A stretch of DNA of 64,000 nucleotides from the NCBI GenBank assembly GCA_965204375.1, contig OZ241986.1, positions 4,032,001 through 4,096,000 on the forward strand. The letters are read 5' to 3'. The notes under the pieces are model-generated. The model was not told the origin of the DNA. It made no database searches and was given only the letters and a program-made list of their open reading frames with translations. Position 1 is the first letter of the stretch, and every line of letters starts with the position of its first letter. The stretch is from Candidatus Latescibacterota bacterium. GTDB lineage: Bacteria > Latescibacterota > UBA2968. Shown here piece after piece: positions 6,859 through 62,890 of this stretch. The translations under genes and the position numbers were made by a program.

Positions 6859-7536
6859 CTACCAGTTACTGAGTATCCGATCTACAAATGACGGATAAAA
6901 ATACATAACGGCGATAACGCCCCCGAAGAGAATATAAGCCCCGATTACGATGAACATGATCGTCTTTTTGCGCTTACTCATCTTGGCACGAGACGAAGTT
7001 CTCAGATCGCTCGGTTGTTTGAGAAAAGGTTCTGATTCATCCTCACCATCAGAGGCCTCTTCCGACGGTGCTTCCTCGTCTTCTACTTCTTCAGTAATCT
7101 CCTCCGACACTTTTTCCTCGGCCTCGATCTCCTCGGCGTCTGCTGGTGTATCCGCTTCGATATCTTCCTCTAATTTGTCTATATTGAACACATGCTCTAT
7201 TTTTTCGATAAGCGTTTTGTCTTCAAATGGTTTTTCAACAATGCTGTAAACACCCTGTTCCAGGAGCGCTGTGGCTTCTGCTTCCTCGACGGGAAACGAT
7301 ACCACAATTATCGGCATCTCAAAGCCTTCTTCGCGAATAAATTCGATCAACACATCGCCGTGAACAATCGGCATCTCGAGATTGAGCAACACCAGATCGG
7401 GTTGTCCGTGCGCGATCGCATCAACCGCTTCTGTCCACGTTGTCGCGCTCTGTGCCTGATAATCATTGGATTCGAGAATCTTGACAATCCGTTTTACAGC
7501 GGCTTCTTCACTGTCAATAGTCAAAATTTTTGTCAT
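6859..7536 (-). CDS. Atypical receiver-domain protein with acidic linker and C-terminal TM anchor
   Basis: REC fold (KILTID, PDLVLLNLEMP, KPF); likely start ATG 7536; E/D-rich linker; hydrophobic C-terminus. Confidence 0.8.
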   Translation of the reverse strand: MTKILTIDSEEAAVKRIVKILESNDYQAQSATTWTEAVDAIAHGQPDLVLLNLEMPIVHGDVLIEFIREEGFEMPIIVVSFPVEEAEATALLEQGVYSIVEKPFEDKTLIEKIEHVFNIDKLEEDIEADTPADAEEIEAEEKVSEEITEEVEDEEAPSEEASDGEDESEPFLKQPSDLRTSSRAKMSKRKKTIMFIVIGAYILFGGVIAVMYFYPSFVDRILSNW

Positions 7537-7714
7537 CCTATCCCCCGTGCGTAGTAGGGCAAATATTAACGCTTGAAAGTATAAAGCGAAAGAAGTCCAA
7601 TGACAAGGATTTTCCCTCACTGCAATCACCCGGTGAGTTCTCTCTTGATTGGTGAACGTGTGTATAGTATATTGCAATATCAATGGAAATTAAAAATTAA
7701 AAATTGGGAGTCTT

Positions 7715-13365: not shown

Positions 13366-13440
13366 ACAGGGTAATGCAGCAAAAAAAGGGGATTATGTAG
13401 CACAGTAGCATGCATAACCCCTCCTTTCTGAGGAAATTGC

Positions 13441-13648
13441 TACACCAATGGCATCGAATCATTCTGGTCGATGATCAAGCGGGGGATTATGGGCGTGTAT
13501 CACAAGGTCAGCCCAAAGCATCTGTGGAGATATGTTGCTGAATTTGTGGCAAAGCAGAATGTGCGGGCCAAAGATACCATTGAGCAGATGAAATGGATCG
13601 TGCAGAGGTTGAAGGGCAGAGGTTGCGATATTGCGACCTGACGGCTTG
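13441..13648 (+). pseudogene. IS1595-family transposase C-terminal remnant
   Basis: YTNGIESFWSMIKRGIMGVYHKVSPKHLWRYVAEF...DTIEQM; N-terminus deleted; frameshift near the end. Confidence 0.85.
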
Positions 13649-13724
13649 ACTTTTATGGGCGATGCGGTACATGCCTTGATGATAATGGTTGGCCTTGTTG
13701 TGCTCGACAAAGTGCCATTTAATT

Positions 13725-14255
13725 TTAAATGGCGGTGATTTCAGTGATGAGTTGTCCGATATGGAGTTCAAAGCCAGCGAGGGGTATCAAGTCGTCAGGT
13801 TTTTTCGTCAGTTTAAAGGTCGCGGAGGAGCCTTTATCCATAGTGACCAAATGTCCTGCATGCCCTTCGACGACATCTCCTTTTCGCCAAGCGTGAAAGA
13901 GGATAATATCAGGGGCGATGCCTAGGCACAGCAATGCTTGATATGGTCTATGGTGTCGGATGTGATTAAACTGGAAGTTTCCACTCACGTCCTCAGTGGC
14001 TGTTTTTATCTCGAAAGTGACGCCTTGGATTTTTGCATCCCAAGGGCCTGTCCGTGTATCTGCTCCGACCCAGTGCAAGTTTAATACTCGGCACCATTTT
14101 TTCACAAAGTCTTGTCCTATCCCACCGATGTGGGTATTGGAAAGGGATTTAATACTGCCGAGCGGGGCATTGATCCACTTCGGGTCATTAGAATAGTCTG
14201 CAATGATTTCTTGCATCAATTCTATTGGATTAGTCATCACAAAATCCTCCATCAA
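13725..14255 (-). CDS. Putative PD-(D/E)xK restriction endonuclease
   Basis: G.IGQDFV...WDAKI...FEIKTATED motif; overlaps the upstream MTase gene. Confidence 0.65.
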   Translation of the reverse strand: MMEDFVMTNPIELMQEIIADYSNDPKWINAPLGSIKSLSNTHIGGIGQDFVKKWCRVLNLHWVGADTRTGPWDAKIQGVTFEIKTATEDVSGNFQFNHIRHHRPYQALLCLGIAPDIILFHAWRKGDVVEGHAGHLVTMDKGSSATFKLTKKPDDLIPLAGFELHIGQLITEITAI

Positions 14256-15249
14256 TTACAGCCTGTCGGATGTGGTACATAGAGATATGCCGGCAGTTAT
14301 GGACAGCGAGGTTGGAGTATTTACGCCAGTCGGTACTTTGGAGCAGCCGGGTAATACGTTTTGGTTCTTTTTTCAGGATGATGCCATACCCACAAGCATA
14401 TTTTACTTGGTCGAAGTCTTGGACAAGGTTTGGTGGGTCGCCATAGTATGTACGTTGCAAGAAGTAGTCGGCTTCATCTAGGCGTGTTTGTCCACAAAGT
14501 CGCTCTTGCCGTGTATCCACCGTGAATAAGTCGATCCAGTCATTGCATGTTTTCTCTGGCGGGATATTGTTGACACCTCGGCGCCATACTTGCCAGAGGG
14601 CATTGAGTTTGACAGGATTTCCGTGATGGTCTACAAAAGCATCGGCAGGCAAAGGTTCAGATAATACAAGTTGTGCCCCTATAACACGGTGTTTAGGACT
14701 TCCCTTGCCATCACTTTGAAATGCCATGGGCAATACAAACCCAATATAGTCTGAGAACTGTGCTGAATGGTTAAGAAAAGCAAGCGCGAGCCATGCACGA
14801 TATCCAAAAGGAGGATTTCCTAAAACAGCATATCGTTGTCCGTCTTTTGGAGGATCCCATGTCAGGTAGTCTTGAGCAATAAACCCAAACCGTGAAGGCA
14901 AAATGTCTATACCAGTTCGTCGCGTCGAAGGCATAAGGTCATAAAATGCACCCATACCTGCCCCAGGGTCTATGAAATGGTAAGATTCAACATCTGCAAA
15001 GTCATCAACCATAAAGGCATATAAGCTATCCCTACATTCGCGCGCAATATCTTTCCGTGTATAGAAACAATCAAGCCCAACACTGCCCGAATCAACCCAG
15101 GACGGAATGAGTGAGCACCCTTCCCAAGCTTGGTTACGTTTATCTTGCGCTTGCTGCATCTTTAGTTCGTCGAAAGGTATATGGAACGAGGGTAAAGTAG
15201 GAAGGGTGGGAAGATCAGAACCCCCATATGAACTGCTCGCTTGTCTCAT
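14230..15249 (-). CDS. N6-adenine DNA methyltransferase (gamma motif order)
   Basis: FYT, motif I IDPGAGMGAF, motif IV GNPPFG; GGAGG RBS before ATG 15249. Confidence 0.85.
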   Translation of the reverse strand: MRQASSSYGGSDLPTLPTLPSFHIPFDELKMQQAQDKRNQAWEGCSLIPSWVDSGSVGLDCFYTRKDIARECRDSLYAFMVDDFADVESYHFIDPGAGMGAFYDLMPSTRRTGIDILPSRFGFIAQDYLTWDPPKDGQRYAVLGNPPFGYRAWLALAFLNHSAQFSDYIGFVLPMAFQSDGKGSPKHRVIGAQLVLSEPLPADAFVDHHGNPVKLNALWQVWRRGVNNIPPEKTCNDWIDLFTVDTRQERLCGQTRLDEADYFLQRTYYGDPPNLVQDFDQVKYACGYGIILKKEPKRITRLLQSTDWRKYSNLAVHNCRHISMYHIRQAVIDGGFCDD

Positions 15250-15413
15250 AATTGTCCTCCTTAATAAAATAGGGCACAATATTATACTACTGTGCCTCGG
15301 CAATGTCAATGGTTGCAAATCTGTGATTATGCTACTCAACTACATAATCCCCAAAAAAGTCCCTACTGCATGTAGAACACCAGCCAGCCATTGAAGAAAA
15401 TCCATAGACCTCC

Positions 15414-15459
15414 TTTTATGGAACAAAAAATAATATATATTATTTTTGTGAAACATAAA
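15414..15459. promoter_or_regulatory. AT-rich palindrome upstream of the Panacea antitoxin (candidate operator)
   Basis: ttatg-gaacaaaaaataatatatattatttttgt-gaaacataa, immediately before the AGGAGG RBS. Confidence 0.4.
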
Positions 15460-15474
15460 TAATAGGAGGTATTT

Positions 15475-16068
15475 ATGTCTAATATGCAGATTCCCCATTT
15501 CAAAGAGCGGAAGGCTACCCAAGTTGCCGCCTTACTGATAAAGCACAATGGCGGTCAAAGCATTGACAAGTACAAACTCCTCAAGCTGATCTACCTTGTC
15601 GATAGAAAGGCATTGGAGCTTTGGGGACACTCTGTAACTTATGATACACCAGCGAATTTTCCGTACGATCCCACTGGTCCCAATCCCAGCCATACGTATG
15701 ACCTTATTGATCCACCAAAGAGAAATCTAAAGGAGACCTCTTCTACCTCCAGCTATTGGTCTCAATTTTTCTCAAACTACGGAGGCACCGTTAGTCTACT
15801 TGGTTTATGTCCGGGTGTAGGGGATCTCTCCCCTGCTGAGATCGGTTTGATCCATGAAATCTTTGAGGAATTTGGACATAAAACTTTTGGAGAATTGAAA
15901 GAATACCTTCAGGCCTTACCCGAGTATAAAGATACAGAAGGATCGCCTGGACCAATAAAATGGGAAACACTCCTTCAGGCCGTAGGCTGGACAGGTGAAG
16001 ACTTAGAAGAAGTAAAAAAAGATCTCACATTTAAAGCGAAATTTGAAACCTTTGTCGGGGCGAGATAA
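15475..16068 (+). CDS. Panacea/SocA (DUF4065) antitoxin
   Basis: F..RKATQVAA.L, KLLKLIYLVDR.AL..WG..VTYD, GP..S..YDLI, LS.AEI..I..I...FG, LPEY. Confidence 0.85.
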   Translation: MSNMQIPHFKERKATQVAALLIKHNGGQSIDKYKLLKLIYLVDRKALELWGHSVTYDTPANFPYDPTGPNPSHTYDLIDPPKRNLKETSSTSSYWSQFFSNYGGTVSLLGLCPGVGDLSPAEIGLIHEIFEEFGHKTFGELKEYLQALPEYKDTEGSPGPIKWETLLQAVGWTGEDLEEVKKDLTFKAKFETFVGAR

Positions 16069-16070
16069 GC

Positions 16071-16466
16071 ATGGGATTAGCGGGCACATGCGCTATTTGC
16101 CCTGATTGGGGAGGCGAGCATTTATGTATATTTCTGACAGACTTTGTAAATGACAAAAGAAGAAAACCAAAAACCATTATTGTGAATGTCACATCATGGA
16201 CTGCAAGAAAAGAATAAACGCTCATACTCTACCCTGGCGAGCATCCTTTTATCATAAAAAAATCAGTCATTGCCTATGATAATGCCCTCTTACTTGCAGA
16301 ATGGCAGGTCGAACATCTCTTATCTAACGGAAAGAAACAGCCACCAGTCTCTGAAGAACTATTGCGGAAAATTGGTGAAGGGCTTCTCAGGTCACCCTTT
16401 ACATTGACAGATGTAAGAGATTTCTACGAACAATATTCTCAGAATATAGACAAGCCTGAAAAATAG
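16071..16466 (+). pseudogene. MazF/PemK-like toxin with in-frame nonsense codon (TAA 16215-16217)
   Basis: Manual translation: MGLAGTCAICPDWGGEHLCIFL...IIVNVTSW..RKE*TLILYPGEHPFIIKKSVIAY...VSEELLRKIGEGLLRSPFT; starts 2 nt after the antitoxin stop. Confidence 0.7.
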
Positions 16467-16484
16467 TCTCTAATACGAAACTAT

Positions 16485-16919
16485 TCAAGGTTTTCCGATC
16501 AACCTCATCCATTTATCTTTTACTGCTGCGAGTATTCTTCGCAGTATCCGCTTCCACCACACCCTCTCTTTCAGCTTTCTCTTTATATCTCGTTCTTTTT
16601 CTTTCCTGTCTCTTATTCTTCCAGCCATTACTTCTTCAGGCGACCAAGCTCTGCACCACTGGGTCCTACTTTCTCGAATTATGTAATGGCTTCCACAGGG
16701 CAATCGCCAATTCCCGACTGATGGCCGTATGCTTACTGTTTCTCCGTCGTACTCAATTCTCCAATCACTACGCCCTAACGGCAGACTTACTTCAGCTTTG
16801 CATCCACATGCACATAAATGCTCTGTTAGCCGGTGTTTTATCGAGATGTATACCTTCCCTCTCTCCATCACTTCCGGCATGTCCTCCACCCATTCTGTTT
16901 CCCATCTCACTGTTCTCAC
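16485..16919 (-). CDS. DUF6527-family protein (Cys/His-rich)
   Basis: HLCACGC...PL...DW....DG..VS..PSVGNW.LPC.SHY.I motif. Confidence 0.8.
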   Translation of the reverse strand: MRTVRWETEWVEDMPEVMERGKVYISIKHRLTEHLCACGCKAEVSLPLGRSDWRIEYDGETVSIRPSVGNWRLPCGSHYIIRESRTQWCRAWSPEEVMAGRIRDRKEKERDIKRKLKERVWWKRILRRILAAVKDKWMRLIGKP

Positions 16920-16921
16920 TT

Positions 16922-18151
16922 TTATCCTTTCCCTTTTTTTCCCAACAGTATCCGTCCAGTGCTTACGGTGTAGAGTATGCTATCAATTCCATTCGGTCTT
17001 TCGTCTCGATATACGCCTCTTTTGGCTTTCCATTCCGTGATTGCCAGTGCCGCACCTAGCATATTTAGCTCTGCTGTTTGTACGTTACCGTATATCTGAT
17101 TAGGTTGTTCCTCTTCTCCATCCCGAATGCCGTTTCCCTCTTTTTTCACATCCTTTGGTCTGTATTGCGTTTCTACTTTTACCATTCCACCTATCTGGTC
17201 GTTGTTATCGCCTTCTATATCCAGCCCTAACCCAACACTTATATGTAGCACTCCCATTTCGTTGCATTTATTTTGCATCTTTCTCCTGCTGTTCAGACAG
17301 TCCACCGCAATAAAGACAGTTGTGCATTTCGCCAAACATTTCAGCGTCTCATCATCTATTCGCTTCTCATGTACGTATATCCCTTCTTCCCGCACTGCCG
17401 CATACCGTTCTCGATGCCATTCTACCTTACTCTTCCCACTCCCAAGTTCCTCTATCCTTGCTGCTCCTGCTATTCTGAACGCGTTGTGTTGTTCCAAAAC
17501 GTCGTCATCATACAAGTATAGCTCTTTAATGTTTGTTTTGGCTAGTATGTCAACGAGGTACGACCCACTTCCTCCTACTCCTATCACCGCCACTACCTCG
17601 TCCTCTATTCTCTGTTCTATTCCTCTTAACCCGTTCCGATACGCGTTTGTATCTACGTATTTGAACCTTGTCTTTGATTCGACCTCTGGATCTCCACCTG
17701 CTCTTGCCGCCTCCAAGATTCCCGGGCGTTTGGCTTCTGCTTCGCCTCCAACTTCTTCCACATAAGTTTCTATTTTTTCTTGGTAGTCTCTGTACCCACG
17801 ACTGCCTCCTTCACTCTTTGGTTTTCTTGACCACTGCATGTATACCATGATTCCTTCTCCTAAGTCTTGTCCTCTGGCCCAATTTCCACAGCTCAAGTAT
17901 GGCTCCATACTCTCCCCGCTTGCCGTGTGTGGTGTTTCACCTGTCCACCACACTGTATGATCGCCCGGAGGTCTGGTCTTATCACCCGCAAGTTCCAGAC
18001 TCGTTACAATATCTCCATTACCAATATCTCCATTTTGCTTTACGTACGGTATCCCCTTTACTAGCAGGTAGGCCCCGCGTATTTCTACGCGGTAGCCTGC
18101 CTCTACTAGTGCGGATAGGTCGTTGTTATGACTTATCGGTGAATTTGACAT
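16922..18151 (-). CDS. DUF6791 (E2-like) + ThiF/E1-like adenylyltransferase
   Basis: N-terminal DL..L...GY.VEI...YLLV..IPYV, DHTVWWTGETP; C-terminal VIGVGGSGS, DDD.LEQHN.FR, FIAVD, NVQTAELN. Confidence 0.85.
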   Translation of the reverse strand: MSNSPISHNNDLSALVEAGYRVEIRGAYLLVKGIPYVKQNGDIGNGDIVTSLELAGDKTRPPGDHTVWWTGETPHTASGESMEPYLSCGNWARGQDLGEGIMVYMQWSRKPKSEGGSRGYRDYQEKIETYVEEVGGEAEAKRPGILEAARAGGDPEVESKTRFKYVDTNAYRNGLRGIEQRIEDEVVAVIGVGGSGSYLVDILAKTNIKELYLYDDDVLEQHNAFRIAGAARIEELGSGKSKVEWHRERYAAVREEGIYVHEKRIDDETLKCLAKCTTVFIAVDCLNSRRKMQNKCNEMGVLHISVGLGLDIEGDNNDQIGGMVKVETQYRPKDVKKEGNGIRDGEEEQPNQIYGNVQTAELNMLGAALAITEWKAKRGVYRDERPNGIDSILYTVSTGRILLGKKGKG

Positions 18152-18374
18152 TGAATCTCATCCCCTCCATAATTTTTGTTTCCTCCCCTTCCTTGAGAAT
18201 CCCTTCTTTCTCTCCTCTCGGTCCGTCCGTCCAAGTTACGTCATATTCGTACAGTGGTCCATGCTTTCCATCCGGGTACGCTAAATTTACTACCTTGTCA
18301 TAGCTAATTTTCTCCTCTTGGGCCTCGTACTTACGTCCTCTGACGTAGATCAAGATTTTTCTTCCTGCGCTCAT
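18126..18374 (-). CDS. Multi-ubiquitin-family beta-grasp (ubiquitin-like) protein
   Basis: I.V.GR......ISY..VV.LAY...YDVTW..GP....G.L..GE..KI.EGM.FNV..TDKS; overlaps the E1 gene by 26 nt. Confidence 0.8.
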   Translation of the reverse strand: MSAGRKILIYVRGRKYEAQEEKISYDKVVNLAYPDGKHGPLYEYDVTWTDGPRGEKEGILKEGEETKIMEGMRFNVKFTDKS

Positions 18375-18697
18375 ATCCTGCTCCTTTGTAAGTTATATTC
18401 GACTGATCGTGCCATTTTTAAAACTCCTCATGGTTTAGGGTTTAGCAAGTACCCCACTTCTGTTCCCAGGCTGGGGCACCGACGACTATGCCCGGCTGCG
18501 CCTCACCGCAGCATATAACCATTAGCCACTACTTCGCGTGTCACTTAGGCGCGGAATATGTAGCCGATGATCTACCGCTTCTTACGATTGGCTATCAACT
18601 CAACTCCTTGTGAGATATCGGAGAAGATTTTTGTTGACTTCCGGGATCAGGCGTTCTATCGTAAACTATATAGCTGGGATAGCATTTCATTCCTGAC

Positions 18698-18769
18698 TGG
18701 CGACCCGCCTCCACACTGGAGATTTCCCGCCGCCACGGAGTCTCCGAACTCCGCAGCAGCGATTCGCCA
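18698..18769 (-). ncRNA. Candidate structured RNA (three-stem junction) upstream of the Ubl operon
   Basis: P1 tggcga/tcgcca; 14-bp P2 cgctgctgcggagt/actccgtggcggcg, fully paired only on the minus strand (3 G-U pairs); P3 ctcca/tggag. Confidence 0.45.
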
Positions 18770-18774
18770 AGATT

Positions 18775-18798
18775 GAGGGGGCATGGCAGTGCCCCCTC
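18775..18798. terminator. GC-rich hairpin after the IrrE-like gene
   Basis: gagggggca-tggcag-tgccccctc; no clear U-tract on the minus strand. Confidence 0.4.
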
Positions 18799-18810
18799 TT
18801 CTCGTTTGCT

Positions 18811-19395
18811 TCAATTCATCATGTTCAGCCCCCTCAACCTCGCCCGTACGAATGCCGGAGTCACTTTGAAGATGGTCGATAATATCTCATGAATGCGATA
18901 GATAGAGAGTGCCTTTCTGACCGCTGGCTCTGGCATGAGCAAACCGCCAGCAAACCGATGCGCCTGCCATTCGGGATTCCTGTAGATGGGGATCTCAGTG
19001 TCGGGCAGTCGATGCAGTATCCCATCGTTTTTGGCCTGCTCCGATATAATCTTCTGCCGTCGCCGCCGAAACTCTGGTATGTGTAAAATCGCGTGACCGA
19101 TTTCGTGCGCCACGGTCGAACGGTAATAGGACACAGCGGTGGGATCGTCCGCGAGTTCAGCCGACACTACGCAGACTTTATTTTCCGAGTCAGTATAACC
19201 CTGGATTCCACGTTTTTCAAGGGGCTGGTAATCCGACTCAATACCTAGTTGGGGAAGTAAAAACTCAAAGATGGACTCCACGTCCACGACCTGCGGTTTC
19301 TTGATGGCCGCGGGCTGGCAGTAGCCCAGAACACACTGTGCAATTTTGTCGATCTCTTGGCCGCTGCGGGCCCGATCTGGAACTAATTTTCGCAT
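18811..19395 (-). CDS. ImmA/IrrE-family metallopeptidase
   Basis: RSTVAHEIGHAILH (HExxH), PEWQAHRFAGGLLMP, FKVT..FVRARL. Confidence 0.9.
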   Translation of the reverse strand: MRKLVPDRARSGQEIDKIAQCVLGYCQPAAIKKPQVVDVESIFEFLLPQLGIESDYQPLEKRGIQGYTDSENKVCVVSAELADDPTAVSYYRSTVAHEIGHAILHIPEFRRRRQKIISEQAKNDGILHRLPDTEIPIYRNPEWQAHRFAGGLLMPEPAVRKALSIYRIHEILSTIFKVTPAFVRARLRGLNMMN

Positions 19396-19778
19396 CGATT
19401 TTGTCTCCTCCGTTCTTGCATCTGGGCGACCGTCTCAAGTAGTTTGTCCAGATCTTCTTCTGACAGACCGTCTGCTCGCATCAACTCCCCGACCATTTGG
19501 GTCATCTTCGGGCTACTATTCCTAATCATCCTCATTAACTTAGTCGGCATTAAACTTCGGACTTCTTCCGCCAGTTTTATCAGTCGGCTGTCCTGAATAC
19601 CCAACTTCTTCTCGATCTTGGCCACTACATTAGGCGATGGCGGTGGTTTGCGACCCTGCTCCACATCCGATAGGTAGCCGATTGACTTGCCTGTGGCCTC
19701 TGCGAGTTCCCGAAGAGTCCGACGTGCTGTCCGGCGTTCGTTCTTGAGGAGTGCGGCAAACTTTTCTATAGTTGACAT
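19383..19778 (-). CDS. XRE-family HTH transcriptional regulator
   Basis: LK.ER....TLRELA...GKS.GYLSDVEQGRKPPP; overlaps the IrrE-like gene. Confidence 0.9.
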   Translation of the reverse strand: MSTIEKFAALLKNERRTARRTLRELAEATGKSIGYLSDVEQGRKPPPSPNVVAKIEKKLGIQDSRLIKLAEEVRSLMPTKLMRMIRNSSPKMTQMVGELMRADGLSEEDLDKLLETVAQMQERRRQNRCEN

Positions 19779-19797
19779 CGCGGCTTCCTCCTTTCGC

Positions 19798-19868
19798 CGC
19801 TATAGGCGTAACATTTTACGCCTTCTATAGCGTAAAAATAAAGTATAAACAAGAGACTAAAAAGTCAA
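19798..19868 (-). promoter_or_regulatory. Sigma70-like promoter and imperfect palindromic operator of the HTH-IrrE operon
   Basis: TTGACT (19868-19863)-N17-TACTTT on the minus strand; inverted repeat cgctataggcgtaa...ttacgccttctatagcg between promoter and RBS. Confidence 0.5.
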
Positions 19869-19898
19869 GCGTTTTTTCACACTCATAGGTCTAATCGC

Positions 19899-21226
19899 GG
19901 TCAAGTCCAAAAAGTTCTGTAAAAAGGTAGCTCCGTGAAATAGGGGTCAGAGATTTTGTTTCAAATACCTCATGTCCAGATAGCGTCTGCCGGTGATCCA
20001 CTCTTCAGACCACTCCATACACAACGCGCCGATCAGACGTTGACAAGCCTCCTGATTCGGGAAGATCTGCACGACATCAGCCCGTCTTTTGATCTCTCGG
20101 TTGAGTCGTTCCAACAGGTTGGTCGTCCGGATGCGTCTTTGATGCTTTTTTGGAAAGTGGAAGCAGGCCAGACAATGGATAATATCCTGGTCTATTTTGT
20201 CCACGACATTGGGCAGTATCTCTTCATAGGTGTCCATCAGTTGCGATAGGCGCTGTTGTGCGGTGTTGTGATCTGGTGCATTGAAAACGTCTTTAAGTGC
20301 CTCGGCGACCTCCCGTTGGTGCTTAGGCGGTGTGATGCCTTTGATATTTCTGTGGAAGTGGGTTTGACAATGCTGCCAAGCGGCCCCCTGAAAGTGTCGT
20401 TTGATGGCGTTTTGTAAGCCTTCGTGGTGGTCAGAGATGACCAGTTGTACGCCCTTTAACCCACGCTTTTTAAGGTCTTTAAACAGATCAGCATACGTGG
20501 CTTCTGTTTCGGAGTGTGCCACATCTATGGATAGGATGTCTCGGTGTCCACTCTCTGCGATCCCAGAAACGATTAAGACGCCCTCAGACGCGACTTGTCC
20601 CCTGCTACGGATGTGGAGATAGGTCGCATCAATGATCAGATAAGGGTATGCCTGGTCAAGGGATCGCTCACGCCATGCGTTTATGTCTGCATCCAGGTCT
20701 TGACAAAGCTGTGAGACCTGGGACTTTGAAAAGGAGGTCCCACACAAGGCTTCTGTGATCTTTGTGACTTTGCGTGTGGAGACCCCTTGTAGATACGCTT
20801 CTTGAAGGGCAAGTATGAGCGCTTTTTCACTGCGTTGAAACCGTGCAAATAACGCACTGCTGAATCGCCCTTCCCGATCTTGGGGCACGCTAAGCTCGAT
20901 ACGGCCTACGCGCGTTTTGACTATCCGAGGTTTATACCCGTTACGGTAGCCTGTTCGCTCGCCAGTTCTTTGATAGGGTTCTGCCTGTAAAAATGATGTG
21001 ATCTCGGCTTCGAGGAACTGCTGGAGGAAGCGTGTCACGGCCTGATTAAGAAAATCAGGGTCATTTAAAAGTGCGAATTGCTCTGGCGCAGCAATTTTAA
21101 TATCTTTGGGGTAAGTCATCGTAGCCTCCAAGGTTAGGGTTTATACTACTTACTCACCCCTATCTTAAGACTTTTCTCGGAGCTACGGTGACTTTTTACA
21201 TTTTACAGAAATATATGGACGCTATC
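19899..21226 (-). mobile_element. Complete IS256-family insertion sequence
   Basis: Imperfect IRs ggtcaagtccaaaaagttctgtaaaa and gatagcgtccatatatttctgtaaaa; exact 8-bp TSD CTAATCGC at 19891-19898 and 21227-21234. Confidence 0.92.
19947..21131 (-). CDS. IS256 (mutator-type) transposase
   Basis: RNGY..R..KTRVG, GVSTRKV, IDATY, ISDHHEGL, QHCQTHF, RTTN.LERLNREIKRR. Confidence 0.95.
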   Translation of the reverse strand: MEATMTYPKDIKIAAPEQFALLNDPDFLNQAVTRFLQQFLEAEITSFLQAEPYQRTGERTGYRNGYKPRIVKTRVGRIELSVPQDREGRFSSALFARFQRSEKALILALQEAYLQGVSTRKVTKITEALCGTSFSKSQVSQLCQDLDADINAWRERSLDQAYPYLIIDATYLHIRSRGQVASEGVLIVSGIAESGHRDILSIDVAHSETEATYADLFKDLKKRGLKGVQLVISDHHEGLQNAIKRHFQGAAWQHCQTHFHRNIKGITPPKHQREVAEALKDVFNAPDHNTAQQRLSQLMDTYEEILPNVVDKIDQDIIHCLACFHFPKKHQRRIRTTNLLERLNREIKRRADVVQIFPNQEACQRLIGALCMEWSEEWITGRRYLDMRYLKQNL

Positions 21227-21406
21227 CTAATCGCTCATTGAGGTGTAATTTTTAATTTAAGCACACCTTCAATTAAAGACCAAATAGTGGCAAAAATCGA
21301 AAAATTGTTGTATTCATTGAAAGAAATAGCTTATCTTGGTTGTCATTGCGGCATGGTTTTAGCCGCAATCCAGTCTGCCAAATAAGAACAAAATGAGGTA
21401 AACAGT

Positions 21407-23587
21407 ATGACTCTTAAAACTCATGATGGAGTACCCTCAATCTCTGGCACCGAGAGCGTAATTAGAGACTATGAAACAGGAGAAGAACAGCGACAGGCCC
21501 AACAATTGCTTGGCTCTCTCGTACAGGCCGATCAGTATGTGGGGGAGGTCTATTCGCTTGGATATGAGACGGCTCTTGTGCAAATTCACGATTTCCACCG
21601 TCGAGAGGTTGGTGGTATTCCAAGTCTTTGCTTTCTCATCGCCACGCGACTTGGTGTGGATGAGGAATTTGACTACACTAAGGAAGATAGTTCGATAATT
21701 CTGCTGCGCGTAATGGATGCCGCACCGCTACCGAATGAGGATGAGGCGACCAGAGTGCGTGTACAGGCTGCACAGCAAGTGCCTGGTCCCACCGAGGGGC
21801 ATTGGGATCGTTCCGACGTGATGGACTTTAATACTGCACAGCTACTAAGTTACGCCGGAGTGCAATGCCGCGTTATTGGGACGTTCTACTTGCAGCCTTC
21901 AGAAGTCGAGAACGATGAAAGGCTACGTCTCCTGTTCGGTGCTGACCTGTCGAACTATTACCCCAACCAAGGGCTAAAGGTTTACAAGCCGAATGGCAAG
22001 GCTTTGCGACAGATTGTGAATTACCGTGAGATCGACAGTAATGGAGTGAACATCGGCGAGGTTCGGTACGCCTCAACCAACCGCGCTTTTCAAGGCATCC
22101 GCGACGTTTCGGTGACAATTGTACCGGAAGATCTGTTAGGACAAAAGAGCGCACTATTCGGGATGACACGAACTGGAAAGTCGAATACGACGAAGATCAT
22201 AGCAGAGGCAGTGTTCAATCTTCGATATAATTCGAATTCGCTGCGGAAGGTGGGGCAGATCATCTTCGATCCGAATGGAGAGTACGCCAATGCTAATGCA
22301 CAAGACTCGGGTGGAGAGGCTCCAAACGCGCTCAAAAATGTATGGCGTGGACGCGAGGAGGGTAATTCCGAGGATGTGATTACTTATGGGATTCTTGGTC
22401 ATCCCAATGATCCCGAACGAGAGTTCATGTTGCTAAACTTCCATGCCGAAGAGAACCTACCTATCGGAAAAGAAATCATTGACGAGGTGTTGCCAGCCCG
22501 AGACTCAAAGTACATCCAAAACTTCCAGCAAGTTCGTTTGCAGCCACTTGAATCAGGAGCAGAATTTGGAGATCGAATTCGCTACGCTCGACAAGTGTTG
22601 GCATATCGTACCTTGCTGGTAAAGTCTGGCTTTATCGCTCCCAACACTATTCAGCCGCGCACTACCCTCCCCAACAACCTCTTCAGCCAAGACCTGATCC
22701 GAGCACTGACGGATAACGAAGACCCCGAATTTGCGTCTGCGGCGCGAACATTCGGAACAGAAATACCGAGTTGGGACCGACTGGCGCAGGCTCTCGAAGC
22801 ACTCCATAGGTTCATAGGGACTAACGATTACAAAAATTTTGAGAATGAATACATTCAAAACTCCTCTTCTGGCGAGGCGTGGGCTGACGGAGACCTAAAA
22901 GCCATATTGGAGATGATTGCACGTCCGAATGGTGCTCAACTCATTAGACAGGCACGGCCTCAGCATACCGAGAGCACTACTACGGACTATGTTGACGATA
23001 TTTATAATGCGTTAGTTGCTGGAAAACTTGTGATCGTGGATCAGTCCAGCGGGGATGAGGCAGTAAACGACGCCTCAGCGCGTCGAATCGTGCAGCGCAT
23101 CTTTGACGGCAATAAGGAGGCGTTCCGGGAAGGACGCTCGACGGAAGAAATACCGGATATTCTCATCTACGCTGAGGAAGCGCACAACCTGCTTCCGTCG
23201 GATCGCGAGACAGATTATCGAGATATATGGGTTCGCACAGCAAAGGAAGGCGCAAAGTACAATCTCGGCTTAATCTACGTCACACAGGAAGTGTCGAGTA
23301 TCCAAAGGAATATTCTAAAGAATACTGCGAACTGGTTTATCGGCCACCTCAATAACACGGATGAAACGCGAGAACTTCGAAAGTTCTATGATTTCGCTGA
23401 CTTTGAGGGATCGATTCTCCGCGCCCAAGATAAAGGCTTTCTCCGCGTCAAAACCATTTCAAATCCTTTCGTGGTCCCCATACAGGTGCAAGAGTTTAAG
23501 TTAGAGCTGGTTAAACCAGAGGCTTCTAAATCACAGACAGAGGTTCCTGAATCACAAACTCAGTTTGGTATAGACTATGCCGTTTGA
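21407..23587 (+). CDS. HerA/FtsK-family ATPase (DUF87)
   Basis: N-terminal HAS-barrel-like region; Walker A GMTRTGKS; IIFDPNGEY; Walker B ILIYAEEAHN; KEGAKY...VTQ. Confidence 0.88.
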   Translation: MTLKTHDGVPSISGTESVIRDYETGEEQRQAQQLLGSLVQADQYVGEVYSLGYETALVQIHDFHRREVGGIPSLCFLIATRLGVDEEFDYTKEDSSIILLRVMDAAPLPNEDEATRVRVQAAQQVPGPTEGHWDRSDVMDFNTAQLLSYAGVQCRVIGTFYLQPSEVENDERLRLLFGADLSNYYPNQGLKVYKPNGKALRQIVNYREIDSNGVNIGEVRYASTNRAFQGIRDVSVTIVPEDLLGQKSALFGMTRTGKSNTTKIIAEAVFNLRYNSNSLRKVGQIIFDPNGEYANANAQDSGGEAPNALKNVWRGREEGNSEDVITYGILGHPNDPEREFMLLNFHAEENLPIGKEIIDEVLPARDSKYIQNFQQVRLQPLESGAEFGDRIRYARQVLAYRTLLVKSGFIAPNTIQPRTTLPNNLFSQDLIRALTDNEDPEFASAARTFGTEIPSWDRLAQALEALHRFIGTNDYKNFENEYIQNSSSGEAWADGDLKAILEMIARPNGAQLIRQARPQHTESTTTDYVDDIYNALVAGKLVIVDQSSGDEAVNDASARRIVQRIFDGNKEAFREGRSTEEIPDILIYAEEAHNLLPSDRETDYRDIWVRTAKEGAKYNLGLIYVTQEVSSIQRNILKNTANWFIGHLNNTDETRELRKFYDFADFEGSILRAQDKGFLRVKTISNPFVVPIQVQEFKLELVKPEASKSQTEVPESQTQFGIDYAV

Positions 23588-24938
23588 AGGCGAATTTGCA
23601 AGTTATAAACCACTCGCACGGATCGCTAATAGCGAGCGCGTTCAGGATATTGTGAGTCGATGTAAGAAACAGGTTCCCGATGAAGGACCAGCAGAGGCAG
23701 AGCTACTTATTGCCGATGTGAAGCCGAGCGACTGGCTACCCGATCTTGTTCTCGCTATAGATGGGAGTCTTCATCCGGTGCCTGTCGAGAATGGGTATCC
23801 TGGGGCAGAACTGGCCTATCTTACTGTTGCCTCGGTTATTATCGATGTAAAAAAACAACGCGAACTGGACCGAAACCGCCCGGTAGATCCGTTGGCAGCG
23901 CGTACAACTGAAGGAGCAGGTAGCATCGACTGTGCGCTTCCCGGTTGCAACGTAGTTGTGGATAATGAACCGACTCCGAACGCTTCATTCCGCCGCGTAT
24001 TCTTTGAGGCCATCCAGGAGAAACGTCCGTTTTCTGACGGAGAGACGCTGCTTGAGACATACGAGGCACTGTTGGCGTACAAACCTTCGGCACGTTTGCA
24101 AGGATGTCCCTATGAGGGTTGCGAGTTTGATTACGATCCTCGCCCAGGTGTGATGAATTGTAAGTGCGAACAGAAACTGAATTGGTACTCAACCGATGCC
24201 CTCCGCATTCACGAGAGATTTAATCCAGCTGGGCCAAATGGAGCAGTTTTTTCTGAGGCAATGCAGGTATGGGAGCGAGTGTGGGTCGTGAACTTCCTTC
24301 GCTGGATTGAGCGTGATCCTCGACGCTTCCGGCTGCTTCGCAACCTCGCCATTATTCTCGATGGACCGCTTGCGGTATTTGGACAACCGGCATGGCTCAG
24401 CCAGGCGATCCGCCGCGAGTTAAAGCGCATCAACGAGGCTGTTCGTAAAGTGATAGATAGCGATATTCTGATCGTCGGCATCGTAAAAAGCGGGGCATTT
24501 GTTGATCACTACGAGATATTAGATACTCCTACACATGGAACAAACGGAAACTCACGATTCAAGCCACAGACAGCAGTACTCCTCACAAACGAATATATCC
24601 GTACCCACATCGCCATCAGTGCTATCGATGATAAGCCGTTTGGTGAGGCCACTTACTTTGGACGAATGTTTTTCTATAAAACCTCTTCAGGTGCTCGAAT
24701 TGTTGCCTCCCTTCCCTTTCTCACTGAGGATGCACGGAACCTATCGAGCGGGGATGTAAGACACTTTCCGCGCCTTGCTGATGCCATGAGCCTGCTTGAT
24801 GCGACCTTCTCAGCACGCTTTCCGAACGCGGTGGCTCCGCTCGTATCAGCCCACGCAGAGGCAGCGATTCCACTTAATCTTGGACGCGAAGTGCTCGAGC
24901 AACTTGCGAAGAAGCTGATGTCCGAGGAAGAATCATGA
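23577..24938 (+). CDS. NurA-family nuclease
   Basis: LAIDGS, ILDGPL, GIVKSG and C-terminal AH.EA motifs; overlaps herA by 11 nt. Confidence 0.8.
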   Translation: MPFEGEFASYKPLARIANSERVQDIVSRCKKQVPDEGPAEAELLIADVKPSDWLPDLVLAIDGSLHPVPVENGYPGAELAYLTVASVIIDVKKQRELDRNRPVDPLAARTTEGAGSIDCALPGCNVVVDNEPTPNASFRRVFFEAIQEKRPFSDGETLLETYEALLAYKPSARLQGCPYEGCEFDYDPRPGVMNCKCEQKLNWYSTDALRIHERFNPAGPNGAVFSEAMQVWERVWVVNFLRWIERDPRRFRLLRNLAIILDGPLAVFGQPAWLSQAIRRELKRINEAVRKVIDSDILIVGIVKSGAFVDHYEILDTPTHGTNGNSRFKPQTAVLLTNEYIRTHIAISAIDDKPFGEATYFGRMFFYKTSSGARIVASLPFLTEDARNLSSGDVRHFPRLADAMSLLDATFSARFPNAVAPLVSAHAEAAIPLNLGREVLEQLAKKLMSEEES

Positions 24939-26020
24939 TACAAGAGGCGATAGAACGCTGGGCTGCCGTAGGTCCTTACTATGCAATGTTTCCAATAAAC
25001 TTTGCTTTCGAGGTTATTGAGGAGTACACGCAGCCCGGAGACCGTATCCTTGATCCGTTCGTTGGACGAGGGTCAAGTATCTATGCTGCCGCAGCGAAAG
25101 AACGAACAGGATGTGGTATAGAGATTAATCCAGTCGGATGGGTGTACAGTAGCGTAAAACTGCGCCCAGTAACACAAGGACGCGTTCTTAAGCGCTTGCG
25201 AGAAATCGGATATAAGGCTAAAGGGATAGACATAGGTCGTGCGAACTTGCCTATGTTCTTCGAGTGGGCTTATGCGCCAGATGTGTTGCGTTTTTTACTG
25301 GCCTCTCGTGATATCCTGCGCTGGAGAGATAGTAAAGTAGATCGTACATTGATGGCGTTTATCCTGATACACCTGCACGGCAAACGCTTGGGTTCGCTAT
25401 CTAACCAGATGCGGGACAGTAAATCAATGGCTCCTGATTATGCCGTGCGGTGGTGGAACAAGCGCGAAATGAGGCCACCTACCATAGATCCTTTAGCCTT
25501 TTTAGAACAGCGGATTGAACGGCGGTACAAGAAGGGAACGCCTGACTTGGAGGGTGAAGTGCTTCTTGGGGACAGTGTTCAACTACTTAATTCAAATAGA
25601 CGACGACGTGCTTTTGCTTTGCCATTTGATCTCCTGTTCACGTCGCCACCTTACTATGGCGTGACCAACTATCACTACGACCAGTGGCTCCGTTTATGGA
25701 TGCTCGGGCATGGTCCAACTCCGCGATGGCGAGGGGGTCGTTGGCAGAGAAAATTTCAGTCGCGGTCTGATTACCTCGAACTACTTGCGGACGTGTTTGG
25801 AGGGGCTGCCCCACGCATGCGCGATAATGCTATTGTCATAGTTCGTACAGATGCTCGTGAGTTTACGCACTCGGCTACTGTCAAGGCACTACGAACAGCC
25901 TTTCCCAACAAGAACCTGCGTGAAGAACCTCGTCCTTTAAAAAGAAAAACACAAACCGCTCTATACGGCGATACTTCGAAGAAGCCTGGGGAAGTAGATA
26001 TTATTATGACTCCTAAATGA
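24935..26020 (+). CDS. DNA methyltransferase, alpha motif order, SPPY type (probably N4-cytosine)
   Basis: PYYAMFP, motif I LDPFVGRGS, motif IV FTSPPYY; ATGA overlap with nurA. Confidence 0.85.
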   Translation: MIQEAIERWAAVGPYYAMFPINFAFEVIEEYTQPGDRILDPFVGRGSSIYAAAAKERTGCGIEINPVGWVYSSVKLRPVTQGRVLKRLREIGYKAKGIDIGRANLPMFFEWAYAPDVLRFLLASRDILRWRDSKVDRTLMAFILIHLHGKRLGSLSNQMRDSKSMAPDYAVRWWNKREMRPPTIDPLAFLEQRIERRYKKGTPDLEGEVLLGDSVQLLNSNRRRRAFALPFDLLFTSPPYYGVTNYHYDQWLRLWMLGHGPTPRWRGGRWQRKFQSRSDYLELLADVFGGAAPRMRDNAIVIVRTDAREFTHSATVKALRTAFPNKNLREEPRPLKRKTQTALYGDTSKKPGEVDIIMTPK

Positions 26021-26061
26021 TTTGAGCAAAGTTGAATGTAAAATTATAAAAAAAATGTCAT

Positions 26062-26395
26062 GAGTGCTCTGTCAAATAAGTTTATTGATATAGTTGTAAT
26101 GCCGTTCGAGTTTTTCTTGGGTCTTGTGTTTGGTAAAGGTCCAATTGACTACACCACGGCGTTGATTGCGTCGCTCAGCCCAAGCCAGCACTTCTTGTCT
26201 CAACGTTTTCACATCCGGAATACGTCGGTTCAGGCATTGTTTCGACAAGGCTGCGAACTCAAACTCGGCCATGTTGAGCCAGCCGCCCTTCTTGGGGGTG
26301 TAATGCGTTTCAAAAGACTGTGCCAATGAAAAGGCTTCTGTTGAAGGTAAGACCTCATAGAACGCACCGGGGGTGTAAATTTTGTCTGAGTTCAC
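26062..26395 (-). pseudogene. IS630-family transposase C-terminal remnant
   Basis: HYTPKKGGWLNMAEFE...LSKQCL.RRI...W...RN......WTFT; terminal-like agtgctctgtcaa. Confidence 0.8.
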
Positions 26396-26581
26396 CTGAC
26401 AGCTCCTGAGAGAGGTCGAAGCAAGATCTGAGTTGCCTGTGAGGAGAGCGGCGTGCGTCCACTACCAACCGCTACTTCCATCTCGACGACGCGGCCCTGA
26501 GCCGCGCTGCTGAGCGTGTGACGGTGGCAATTCAGGGGAAACTCTGCCAACGCTGGACGTAAGCATCGAGGAGCGCACATT

Positions 26582-27847
26582 GTGAGCCATCTTGCGGATT
26601 CATTTAGAGGAAAATTGCTTCTCCTAATTCTTGATAAGTTCGTTATCGGAGCGATAATCGCGTTGGCTTTCGTCTGCTATGAGCGTTACAAGACAGAAGA
26701 AACGAGGAAGTATGAAGAGAAGCGCTCCGAAATTCAATTGCAGTTCGAGAGAGCGAGATTGCTCAAAGAGTTTCTGCCGATTATTCAAAATTCGGACACA
26801 AATCCTGTCACGAGTAGCTATCTTCTCCATTCCGCAATTCTCACAAACTCTCTGAATGCAGACGCTGCCTTTGATATCGGCCGCGACTTCCTGTATGGCA
26901 AACTATCGGAGAACCGCTACAAAGAAATTGTATCAGCGACTCTTCCGGAAAGCATAGGTGCTTTCGCCAGACGTGGAGTGCAGATAGCAAAGGAGTGGCA
27001 CTCCGCCTTGGGCAGCTTTCCTCATCTAGACGCTAGTTTTAATCCGTTGTCTGGCATTGAGGATTTGCCAAAGGAGGCATCATCAATCATAAAGGAAGCA
27101 AGGTTATACAGAGACTTATTATACGACAATCTTACTGCATTTGATAATTTCGAATCTCTTGAGCTTTTGCAAGAGGACCAAATCCGAGATAACCTGTTTG
27201 GTCTGTTTGTATTGTTGCAGACATCCGACTTCCAGAAAGCTCGTAAGCTTTCCCAGAGACCCGAGAATGTTCTACAATTGCTCGGTATGATCGTTCGTCT
27301 TTGGCAAAGAGGTGGCAAAGATCAGGAAGCGGAAAGCTACTTAGAAGCTCAGTTTGAAGAAGCAGGCAAGTCAAAAGAACGACTCCATCGTGCAATGGTT
27401 CTAGTGGCACTATTGCGTTGGATTTCGGCTAAAGAGGACGGGCTTAAGTCTTCCGCTTTCGCGAGAATCCTGGGAAAGATAGCAGTAGGAAGTTTGCCTC
27501 AAATTGGCATCACTGCCGCCGAAGGAGGCAGTGTCTACTGGTTACGGTGGAACGCTGCCGAAGCGCTTTACCTAGCTAAAGATCAGGCGGCTAACTCAGT
27601 GCCTATAATTGTTCAATTTCTTGAGTCTTTCCGTGATCGTTTGGCGATGGCGGAAAGCCGGGATCAGCTTCGGGAAGTCTCCAATAGATACCACTCAGGA
27701 AAGATTGTGAGAGTTCTTATCTCTGTTTTGGGTAACGTTCCGACAAATGAAGCGAAACGAACACTGCAAGTGTTGCTTAAATTGGAGGATGATCGGCTCA
27801 GGCATTTTCCCCTTCTCAAAGAGAACTTACAGCACGCACTTGAATGA
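26582..27847 (+). CDS. Hypothetical protein: N-terminal TM helix, then helical/HEAT-like repeats
   Basis: 421-aa ORF with GAGGAG RBS; hydrophobic segment at about aa 11-33, a coiled coil, then helical repeats. Confidence 0.6.
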   Translation: MSHLADSFRGKLLLLILDKFVIGAIIALAFVCYERYKTEETRKYEEKRSEIQLQFERARLLKEFLPIIQNSDTNPVTSSYLLHSAILTNSLNADAAFDIGRDFLYGKLSENRYKEIVSATLPESIGAFARRGVQIAKEWHSALGSFPHLDASFNPLSGIEDLPKEASSIIKEARLYRDLLYDNLTAFDNFESLELLQEDQIRDNLFGLFVLLQTSDFQKARKLSQRPENVLQLLGMIVRLWQRGGKDQEAESYLEAQFEEAGKSKERLHRAMVLVALLRWISAKEDGLKSSAFARILGKIAVGSLPQIGITAAEGGSVYWLRWNAAEALYLAKDQAANSVPIIVQFLESFRDRLAMAESRDQLREVSNRYHSGKIVRVLISVLGNVPTNEAKRTLQVLLKLEDDRLRHFPLLKENLQHALE

Positions 27848-28170
27848 AGAATGACAACCGAACGCGTTACGATGTGACATACGGCTAAGTAGTCCTTCAA
27901 ATAAGACCGTTTACGTAAACAAAGGGAAGTCCGTAGGTCAGATTCACAGAAAGGCTAGCTACAGGCGATATGAAGTCCCTCAATCAATGCCACGGAGCAT
28001 CAAGGAACTTACTTGAAAGACCAATGAGATTGCGTGCTTTCGAAAATTTGGATTGGGCCATAGCATAAGGATGTTATGGCTTTTTGGTTTAAAGCAGTTT
28101 GGATGCCTGTCTCTTTCTTATGATCAAACGATTCGAGGTCAAACTATAAAGCGTTAAAAAGGTAAAAAAA

Positions 28171-62845: not shown

Positions 62846-62890
62846 GTGATTACTCCCAACGCTAAAGCAGTTGGGCTTCTTGGCGGTCAA
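62846..62890 (-). mobile_element. IS200/IS605 right end (hairpin + TCAC); 3' part of the predicted omega/reRNA
   Basis: Minus strand gaagcccaac-tgctttagc-gttgggagtaatcac immediately after the tnpB stop. Confidence 0.8.

Follow-up and report, generated by a model that had tools for sequence, protein, structure and literature searches.

A HerA-NurA-DNA methyltransferase cassette in a Latescibacterota genome, a candidate mobile restriction-modification-like immune system

Results

Organization of the three-gene block

The window analysed here, a stretch of 64,000 nucleotides (nt) from Candidatus Latescibacterota bacterium (GenBank assembly GCA_965204375.1, contig OZ241986.1, positions 4,032,001 to 4,096,000 of the forward strand), carries at 21407-26020 a block of three overlapping genes, which encode a HerA-like ATPase, a NurA-like nuclease and a DNA methyltransferase (MTase), and which we consider as a candidate restriction-modification (R-M)-like immune cassette. 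The features of the block are listed below, with positions counted from the first letter of the window, proteins measured in amino acids (aa) and conservation given for 44 aligned relatives; L001 and L002 are the closest related loci and AdoMet stands for S-adenosylmethionine.

21227-21406, + strand: intergenic stretch upstream of herA, kept with the cassette (blastn to L001 and L002)
21407-23587, + strand: herA-like ATPase gene, 726 aa
22160-22183, + strand: HerA Walker A, GMTRTGKS (aa 252-259), invariant or nearly invariant
23159-23185, + strand: HerA Walker B-like motif, ILIYAEEAH (aa 585-593, EEAH 590-593), invariant or nearly invariant
23577-24938, + strand: nurA-like nuclease gene, 453 aa
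23760-23765, + strand: NurA motif I (..AIDG, D62-G63), D62-G63 in 44/44
24105-24167, + strand: NurA four-cysteine insert CPYEGC...CKC, Zn-ribbon-like (aa 177-197)
24360-24365, + strand: NurA motif II (..ILDG, D262-G263), D262-G263 in 44/44
24840-24869, + strand: NurA motif III (LVSAHAEAA), A425 and E428 in 44/44
24935-26020, + strand: DNA amino-methyltransferase gene with permuted motif order, 361 aa
25052-25078, + strand: MTase AdoMet motif I, DPFVGRGSS (DPFxGR aa 40-45), DPFxGR invariant in 44/44
25640-25654, + strand: MTase catalytic motif IV, TSPPY (aa 236-240), invariant in 44/44

The first-pass annotation of the block had described an overlap of 11 nt between herA and nurA (ATGCCGTTTGA) and an ATGA overlap between nurA and the MTase gene, and both can be read directly in the sequence. 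It had also found all catalytic motifs to be present, and this extends to the family: Walker A and B of HerA, D62 and D262 of NurA, and DPFxGR and TSPPY of the MTase are conserved in the 44 relatives. A GAGG ribosome-binding site lies at 21395-21398, 8 nt ahead of the herA ATG. The upstream stretch 21227-21406, at 21227 and 21275 of which the blastn alignment to L001 and L002, respectively, restarts, contains no promoter-like consensus site in a simple scan, and inside the block a promoter/terminator scan gives nothing above chance (7 promoter-like sites vs 8.6 expected). The cassette is compact, with three genes in 4.6 kb and without any shared accessory gene. The ratio of nonsynonymous to synonymous substitution rates is 0.07-0.15 for herA, nurA and the MTase gene alike (vs L001 and L003), and all three genes are under purifying selection.

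Conservation of the block as a unit

When one genome per species was scanned for 185,579 species, 140 NurA relatives were retrieved, the best 80 loci of which were analysed; residue conservation, alignments and the tree are based on 44 sequences. An MTase gene lies directly downstream of nurA in all 80 loci (tblastn), and herA directly upstream in 79 of them, the exception, L078, starting inside nurA at a contig end. The co-conservation of the MTase, which the first-pass annotation had named as a check, is thus confirmed. Clustering of the 1087 open reading frames (ORFs) of the 80 loci and of the window between 10 and 40 kb yields three families that occur in 78-81 sources, followed by one that occurs in 8; as no further family is found in more than 8 loci, the cassette has no fourth component.

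The arrangement is also tight. Among the 66 sources with three whole genes, and with the approximate starts given by the longest ORFs, herA and nurA are spaced by -32 to +14 nt in 64, and nurA shares 4 or 1 nt with the MTase gene in 45. Pairwise identities are correlated between the three proteins (r 0.93 for MTase-NurA, 0.82 for MTase-HerA and 0.81 for HerA-NurA). A family-profile search of 1.84 billion representatives gives 881 sequences that reach E 0.001 and 337 that reach E 1e-30, nearly all of about 450 aa, and the family is real but rare.

Some copies are broken. An insertion splits nurA in L006 (6957-8001) and herA in L052 (5359-6884), and the herA gene of Deferribacter L084 is split by an IS200/IS605 tnpA-tnpB pair at 7032-8811; the inserts measure 1-1.8 kb and the MTase gene is whole in all three. 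Insertion-type breaks are found in herA or nurA only, three cases being too few to reach significance. Two putative fusions were rejected as natural proteins: P0124 (819 aa, the C-terminal half of HerA joined to NurA) and P0125 (817 aa, NurA joined to the MTase, with stretches that look frameshifted) are both probably read-through or assembly products.

The three encoded proteins

The HerA-like protein passes the Pfam cut-off for the DUF87/HerA central domain (PF01935, 47.1 bits vs 23.2, E 4.3e-12, aa 233-300), while Pfam gives nothing usable for aa 1-230 and 300-560. About 330 aa separate Walker A from Walker B, and the protein is larger than canonical HerA proteins. A candidate arginine finger, R610, and a candidate sensor-1 residue, Q627, assigned from the sequence pattern (..WVRTAKEGAKY..YVTQE..), are nearly invariant in the 44 sequences; a sensor-1 glutamine with an upstream arginine finger is described as a feature of the HerA/FtsK clade (PMC10853773). 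Twelve PADLOC families, of which eleven are HerA models and one is mad8, are weakly matched, with E 4e-19 at best. As the scores against the NCBIfam HerA equivalogs (repair; anti-phage 1 and 2) stay far from the cut-offs (51.9, 43.4, 41.2 and 32.3 bits vs 800, 800, 850 and 970), the protein belongs to a different HerA subfamily. In the PDB sequence search it matches TdpA (8wet, E 2.4e-17) and HerA of S. solfataricus (4d2i, E 1.7e-9), and the family profile matches TdpA at E 1.5e-21, this likeness being limited to the ATPase core (profile aa 208-295 and 517-657).

The NurA of the window stays under the Pfam cut-off for PF09376 (15.3 bits vs 21, E 0.015). Its identity as NurA therefore rests on its relatives, to which it is 40-96% identical; of the 44 in the alignment, 39, at 40-89% identity to it, match PF09376 at E <= 0.001 (best E 1.2e-32). 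In a protein atlas, NurA-bearing clusters make up 29/30 of the feature matches (top score 0.96). All three NurA motifs, defined as I ..DG, II ..DG and C-terminal III LxxAHxxxA in PMC13748450, are present as LAIDG, IILDG and LVSAHAEAA. Neither PADLOC nor NCBIfam has a model for the window NurA, the PDB contains no real match by sequence for the NurA profiles or for two distant NurA relatives, and Pfam gives nothing usable for aa 100-255.

The cysteine-rich insert that the first-pass annotation had pointed out is present in the window and kept in 29/44 relatives, one more having four cysteines with another spacing; it does not hold as a general feature, since it is mostly lost in 14/44 (alignment read by eye), mainly in a Bacteroidota-centred clade. 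As about a third of the relatives have lost it, the insert is not essential to the family. Residue 303 (nt 24483-24485), within a G-x-E-K-S-G stretch and beside the invariant K304, is Val in the window, L001 and L002, and Glu in 43/44 aligned relatives including L003; the change is lineage-specific.

The MTase matches Pfam N6_N4_Mtase in the AdoMet region only (43.7 bits vs 26.7, E 4e-11), its aa 14-66 aligning to profile positions 161-213 of 221, and Pfam gives nothing usable for aa 70-235 and 250-361. PADLOC MTase_II (PDLC03325) is matched at E 5.7e-20 over aa 15-259. The nearest PDB enzymes are beta-class N4/N6 MTases that have SPPY ahead of motif I, whereas the order is here motif I, then motif IV. 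By the rule that SPPY is a signature of N4-cytosine methylation, the invariant TSPPY would point to N4-methylcytosine (m4C). Taken over the whole block, PADLOC, whose use the first-pass annotation had suggested, assigns no nuclease model and gives weak HerA and generic MTase_II matches only.

Mobility and genomic context

The triad is found in L001 and L002, both from Latescibacterota, in the same slot as in the window, which is bordered by a uvrA paralogue on one side and by a GH5 gene on the other. With L003 the window has only 21452-26023 in common, i.e., the triad alone (blastn). The concatenated tree of 44 sources intermixes phyla with an SH-aLRT support of 100, as in a group of Latescibacterota, Rhodothermota and Cyanobacteriota, and its eighteen phylum labels need 23 changes vs a minimum of 17. 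These results show that the cassette is transferred as a single block among widely different microbes.

In a survey of flanking genes (Pfam on 143 of 159 listed ORFs, two per side, 36 loci), a gene for a toxin-antitoxin system, a transposase, R-M or defence occurs within two ORFs in 19/36 loci, a raw count without background frequency. The gene types include PIN, MazF and HigB toxins, transposases or recombinases, R-M genes, SIR2, HNH and AAA_15, a SIR2_2 gene being found in L035 alone. A defence or mobile neighbourhood, the enrichment of which the first-pass annotation had proposed as a check, is seen in these loci and not in the other 17.

One explanation of such a context is a selfish addiction module, in which loss of the MTase would expose the chromosome to the longer-lived HerA-NurA, with post-segregational killing as the result and any phage defence as a side effect. 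Transfer of the block as a unit between phyla, its presence on plasmids and in a prophage, and the toxin-antitoxin genes and transposases that often adjoin it would all fit. Most loci are however chromosomal and without a recombinase of their own, and the persistence of copies with an insertion-broken herA or nurA and a whole MTase gene fits a relaxed need for restriction better than addiction. Addiction is moreover compatible with defence, classical Type II R-M systems being established to do both, and we regard it, as the main role of the block, as rather unlikely.

Another alternative is a part of the block in the apparatus by which mobile elements are transferred or partitioned. HerA-family pumps act in conjugation-like transfer in Thermus, the HepA mutants of which are reported to be defective in competence and DNA donation (PMC5448004), and an older review presents the HerA-NurA operon as a key plasmid-partitioning component (PMC2588523). 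Against such a part, the 80 loci have no gene for a relaxase, a coupling protein, replication or partition in common, and most copies lie amid chromosomal housekeeping genes, so that this role appears very improbable.

Distant versions

Several distant versions exist. A Halorarius plasmid has the same gene order, with a DUF87 protein (33%, 701 aa), a NurA-like protein (26%) and a permuted MTase (28%, E 7e-23), while the order on a Deferribacter megaplasmid is MTase-HerA-NurA. In the Vibrio temperate phage L081 (PQ189353, 1309-5751; PQ189371 is alike), HerA, annotated as two coding sequences, and a NurA-like protein (30%) follow the integrase gene, and a D12 Dam-type MTase without similarity to the window MTase is encoded on the opposite strand, before the excisionase gene; only this MTase is annotated as R-M in the phage record. 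The methylase of the Vibrio prophage is thus a non-orthologous replacement. As an unrelated, catalytic-type MTase replaces that of the cassette, it can be argued that methylation itself matters.

A further variant, L083, lies on a Tolypothrix plasmid (3623-10326) and consists of helix-turn-helix (HTH), DUF87 and NurA genes, followed by a small ORF and, in place of the MTase, by an 816-aa protein in which an RNase_T-type exonuclease is joined to a STAND/ORC-like NTPase; this set resembles the HerA/FtsK 'capture' systems of PMC10853773. MTase relatives at 32% identity have other partners, a 1414-aa superfamily 1 (SF1)-helicase-like ATPase on a Rhizobium plasmid and two unknown ORFs on a Mesorhizobium plasmid. 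With this MTase beside varied partners, and an unrelated MTase beside HerA-NurA, the MTase is a modification module, and HerA-NurA acquired a methylase on more than one occasion.

Neighbouring genes in the window

Upstream of the cassette lies an island whose genes are listed below, with the strand where it was recorded.

13728-14255, - strand: restriction endonuclease (REase_II), PADLOC E 1.3e-10, about 6 kb upstream of herA
14230-15339, - strand: MTase_II beside REase_II, PADLOC E 7.7e-53
15475-16068: SocA/Panacea antitoxin-domain gene (Pfam)
16485-16919: DUF6527 gene
16922-18151: E1-like ThiF+DUF6791 protein (PADLOC E1-E2 matches, NCBIfam PRK06153)
18811-19395: M78 peptidase, CapP-like
19383-19778: HTH gene, CapH-like
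19947-21131, - strand: IS256/Mutator transposase, Pfam E 4.6e-126

The first-pass annotation had stated that no conventional restriction endonuclease lies nearby, and the PADLOC matches of the Type II pair, in neither ORF of which Pfam finds anything, correct this statement. The pair is however a separate insertion (segment 13380-15454) that is found neither in L001 nor in L002, and its endonuclease, which has its own MTase, was rejected as a partner of the cassette MTase. The cargo at 15475-19778, present in L001 and not in L002, may represent a defence module based on ubiquitin-like conjugation, together with its regulator pair. The HTH/M78 pair was considered as a regulator of the cassette and rejected, as L002 is without the whole block and yet keeps the triad.

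The IS256 copy, the inverted ends of which (19905-19940 and 21173-21220) are imperfect, lies about 186 nt upstream of herA, is found neither in L001 nor in L002, and may have changed the transcription of the cassette. Altogether, L002 entirely misses 13389-21274, and L001 misses 13380-15454, the IS256 copy and 26022-28167. The last segment is specific to the window, where it replaces about 0.5 kb of L001 and holds an 89-aa ORF and a 421-aa ORF (26582-27847, GTG start); neither belongs to a Pfam, PADLOC or NCBIfam family, and their atlas neighbours are hypothetical clusters (best 0.92, with recognition below the usual level). Two tandem uvrA-like genes (960 and 916 aa) occupy 7715-13362, directly upstream of the island, and a TnpB/IS605 OrfB-type gene with a Cas12f1-like TNB domain (Pfam OrfB_IS605) is found far downstream, at 62890-63981 on the - strand.

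Discussion

Comparison with known systems

The first-pass annotation knew of no characterised system of this composition. Neither full-text literature searches nor passages of the two comparative-genomics papers on HerA/FtsK 'capture' systems (PMC10853773 and PMC12839542) revealed a HerA-NurA-methylase system, the supplementary lists of both papers, in which the triad might figure, lying outside the search. In section 20 of the review PMC13748450, bacterial NurA-HerA complexes are said, without reference, to degrade mainly viral DNA, and no methylase is named.

The logic, as opposed to the composition, already exists in tdpABC of thermophiles, a phosphorothioate-based R-M system (PMC12914056; PMC13223576) in which tdpC alone suffices for modification (PMC12914056). 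Both sets consist of three genes, for one modification function, a motor and a nuclease, and the cassette HerA has its best solved relative in TdpA; modification would be performed in the cassette by an AdoMet-dependent MTase instead of TdpC. The TdpA hexamer and TdpB are reported to degrade unmodified DNA, the sulfur mark blocking both translocation and cutting. As TdpABC combines a HerA-like motor, a nuclease and a phosphorothioate self mark, the idea put forward for the cassette is less unprecedented than first held. The cassette HerA is only weakly TdpA-like and the third gene encodes a methyltransferase in 80/80 loci, and by analogy the cassette would work like Tdp without being a member of it. 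The best-supported description of the triad is, on the comparisons made, that of a putative methylation-based variant of TdpABC-type motor-nuclease R-M.

The MADS system of Pseudomonas aeruginosa (mad1-mad8) combines a methylation self mark (N6-methyladenine) with ATPase-nuclease modules (PMC13662399). The methylation logic is the same, and the cassette HerA matches mad8 (E 9.4e-12) and its MTase mad2 weakly (E 7.6e-6); MADS differs by its eight genes, its OLD-like MAD3-MAD4 module, its kinase and further genes, the cassette having three genes.

Type I, III and ISP R-M systems as well as BREX and DISARM also combine a self-marking MTase with an NTP-driven motor and a nuclease acting on unmodified DNA, and the MTase relatives at 32% identity have different large ATPases as partners on plasmids of rhizobia. 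The cassette departs from them in its motor, a ring-forming ATPase of the FtsK/HerA clade and not a superfamily 2 (SF2) helicase, in the RNase H-like fold expected of its NurA, which is not PD-(D/E)xK, and in having no specificity subunit.

SIR2-HerA and DUF4297-HerA have, like the cassette, a HerA-family ATPase beside an effector gene, and are matched by its HerA in the PDB and PADLOC at E 1e-6 to 1e-19. Their effectors differ, NurA taking the place of SIR2 and DUF4297, neither of which is in the cassette, and they are presented without a modification gene in the abstracts of PMC11472057 and PMC11291478, whereas the cassette has its methylase. These matches nevertheless raise the alternative of a HerA-scaffolded abortive or trigger-sensing system, in which NurA would be unleashed on all DNA when an infection is sensed and the MTase would act as a sensor, a decoy against phage anti-restriction or a regulator instead of a self-marking enzyme, and the lack of diversification in the target region of the MTase would agree with it. 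The likeness to SIR2-HerA and DUF4297-HerA is however weaker than that to TdpA, the TSPPY and AdoMet motifs are invariant in 44/44 sequences, and an unrelated catalytic-type Dam methylase substitutes in the Vibrio element. We consider such a system unlikely.

Finally, the canonical HerA-NurA of Sulfolobus, Pyrococcus, Thermococcus, Deinococcus and Thermus share with the cassette the two families, their adjacent order and NurA motifs I-III. NurA nucleases are characterised by a toroidal RNase H-fold dimer that docks on HerA and by an Mn-dependent 5'-3' exo/endonuclease activity. The cassette differs by a larger HerA, by a Zn-ribbon-like insert of NurA in 29/44 relatives, by an obligatory MTase and by a mobile, patchy distribution. 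The likeness raises the alternative of a DNA repair or end-resection module, as in archaea, Deinococcus and Thermus, with an epigenetic or strand-marking MTase: HerA-NurA is described in PMC9960219 and PMC12977600 as the canonical end-resection pair, relatives of the window NurA are labelled 'DNA double-strand break repair nuclease NurA' by NCBI, and the window carries two uvrA paralogues a short way upstream.

The other observations do not agree with repair. No mre11 or rad50 domain is found in the 45 window ORFs scanned (16 + 29), contrary to the archaeal mre11-rad50-herA-nurA operon and as the first-pass annotation had noted. The distribution is patchy, with 140 relatives in 185,579 species genomes and a phylum-mixed tree, the flanks are variable, the slot is that of an island, and one version stands at the int-xis genes of a prophage. 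A repair function would moreover leave unexplained both the MTase linkage in 80/80 loci and the swap for an unrelated MTase. We thus view it as improbable, and the NCBI label is probably a wrong annotation for the NurA family found here.

Proposed function

All our results, put together, lead us to propose, with a probability of about 0.6, that the triad is a self-contained, horizontally mobile, R-M-like immune cassette in which HerA-NurA would be the restriction arm. The MTase would mark host DNA with m4C, the hexameric HerA motor would feed DNA to NurA, and NurA would processively degrade unmarked DNA, for instance that of an injecting phage or of a plasmid. The mark could be read in two ways: (i) the methyl marks could stall or exclude HerA-NurA, as phosphorothioate is said to do on TdpAB, or (ii) the MTase could double as a recognition subunit and load HerA-NurA at unmodified sites, in the manner of Type I and III R-M and BREX. 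The defence role, the protection by methylation and the mode of mark reading are what we infer from sequence comparison. The first-pass annotation had already suggested a motor-nuclease that degrades invading DNA and an MTase that marks self; the comparison across relatives speaks in favour of this proposal, and none of the refutation checks that were run went against it.

Several observations weigh against the proposed immune cassette. The loci were sampled via NurA only, as the best 80 of 140 relatives. The MTase gene is frameshifted and nurA whole in L002 and L053 (herA being whole in L002 and cut by the contig end in L053), and under a strict R-M logic such copies should be lethal, unless they are assembly errors, which these two frameshifts may be. 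The MTase has no hypervariable target-recognition stretch (conservation of 0.44-0.79 in 20-aa windows), whereas specificity is diversified in classical R-M enzymes; the even conservation of the region that separates the two motifs suggests that it has a single, conserved and probably short target. The window NurA has V303 instead of the near-universal E303. PADLOC is silent on the nuclease, mad7 included, its HerA scores are weak, and the NCBIfam anti-phage HerA equivalogs give 41-43 bits vs 800-850. Housekeeping or unknown genes, without a defence or mobile neighbour, flank 17/36 loci, and the Tolypothrix set has no methylase. Lastly, a sequence-blind ring motor and its nuclease offer no evident means of sensing a methyl group on a base.

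One more specific possibility, which we put forward only tentatively and at less than even odds, is that the cassette defines a new ATP-dependent class of R-M. A HerA ring translocase coupled to the RNase H-fold NurA would enter and processively destroy DNA, and would be halted or kept out by a dense and conserved m4C mark, written by the dedicated permuted MTase that travels and co-evolves with NurA. This mark would be the base-methyl counterpart of the TdpAB brake and functionally a 'Chi-like' self signal, and transfer would have spread this class, on plasmids and in temperate phages, over archaea and no fewer than 18 bacterial phyla.

Implications

The proposal is directly testable, since the cassette is compact and has cultured carriers among the cyanobacteria (L005 Vasconcelosia minhoensis LEGE 07310, L012 Brunnivagina elsteri CCALA 953, L018 Spirulina sp. 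CCNP1310 and Synechococcus sp. PCC 7336, P0020), as well as a haloarchaeal carrier (Halorarius halobius ZY10) and a version in a Vibrio prophage; the Vibrio phage L081 would offer a natural and culturable model for the idea of HerA-NurA associated with a methylase. A nuclease that acts processively and is stopped by methylation could also serve as a tool. If the proposal is true, R-M would gain a restriction arm outside the textbook types, namely a hexameric pump and an RNase H-fold nuclease placed under methylation, the TdpAB principle would extend beyond phosphorothioate, and an end-resection machinery of the archaeal type would be tied to immunity.

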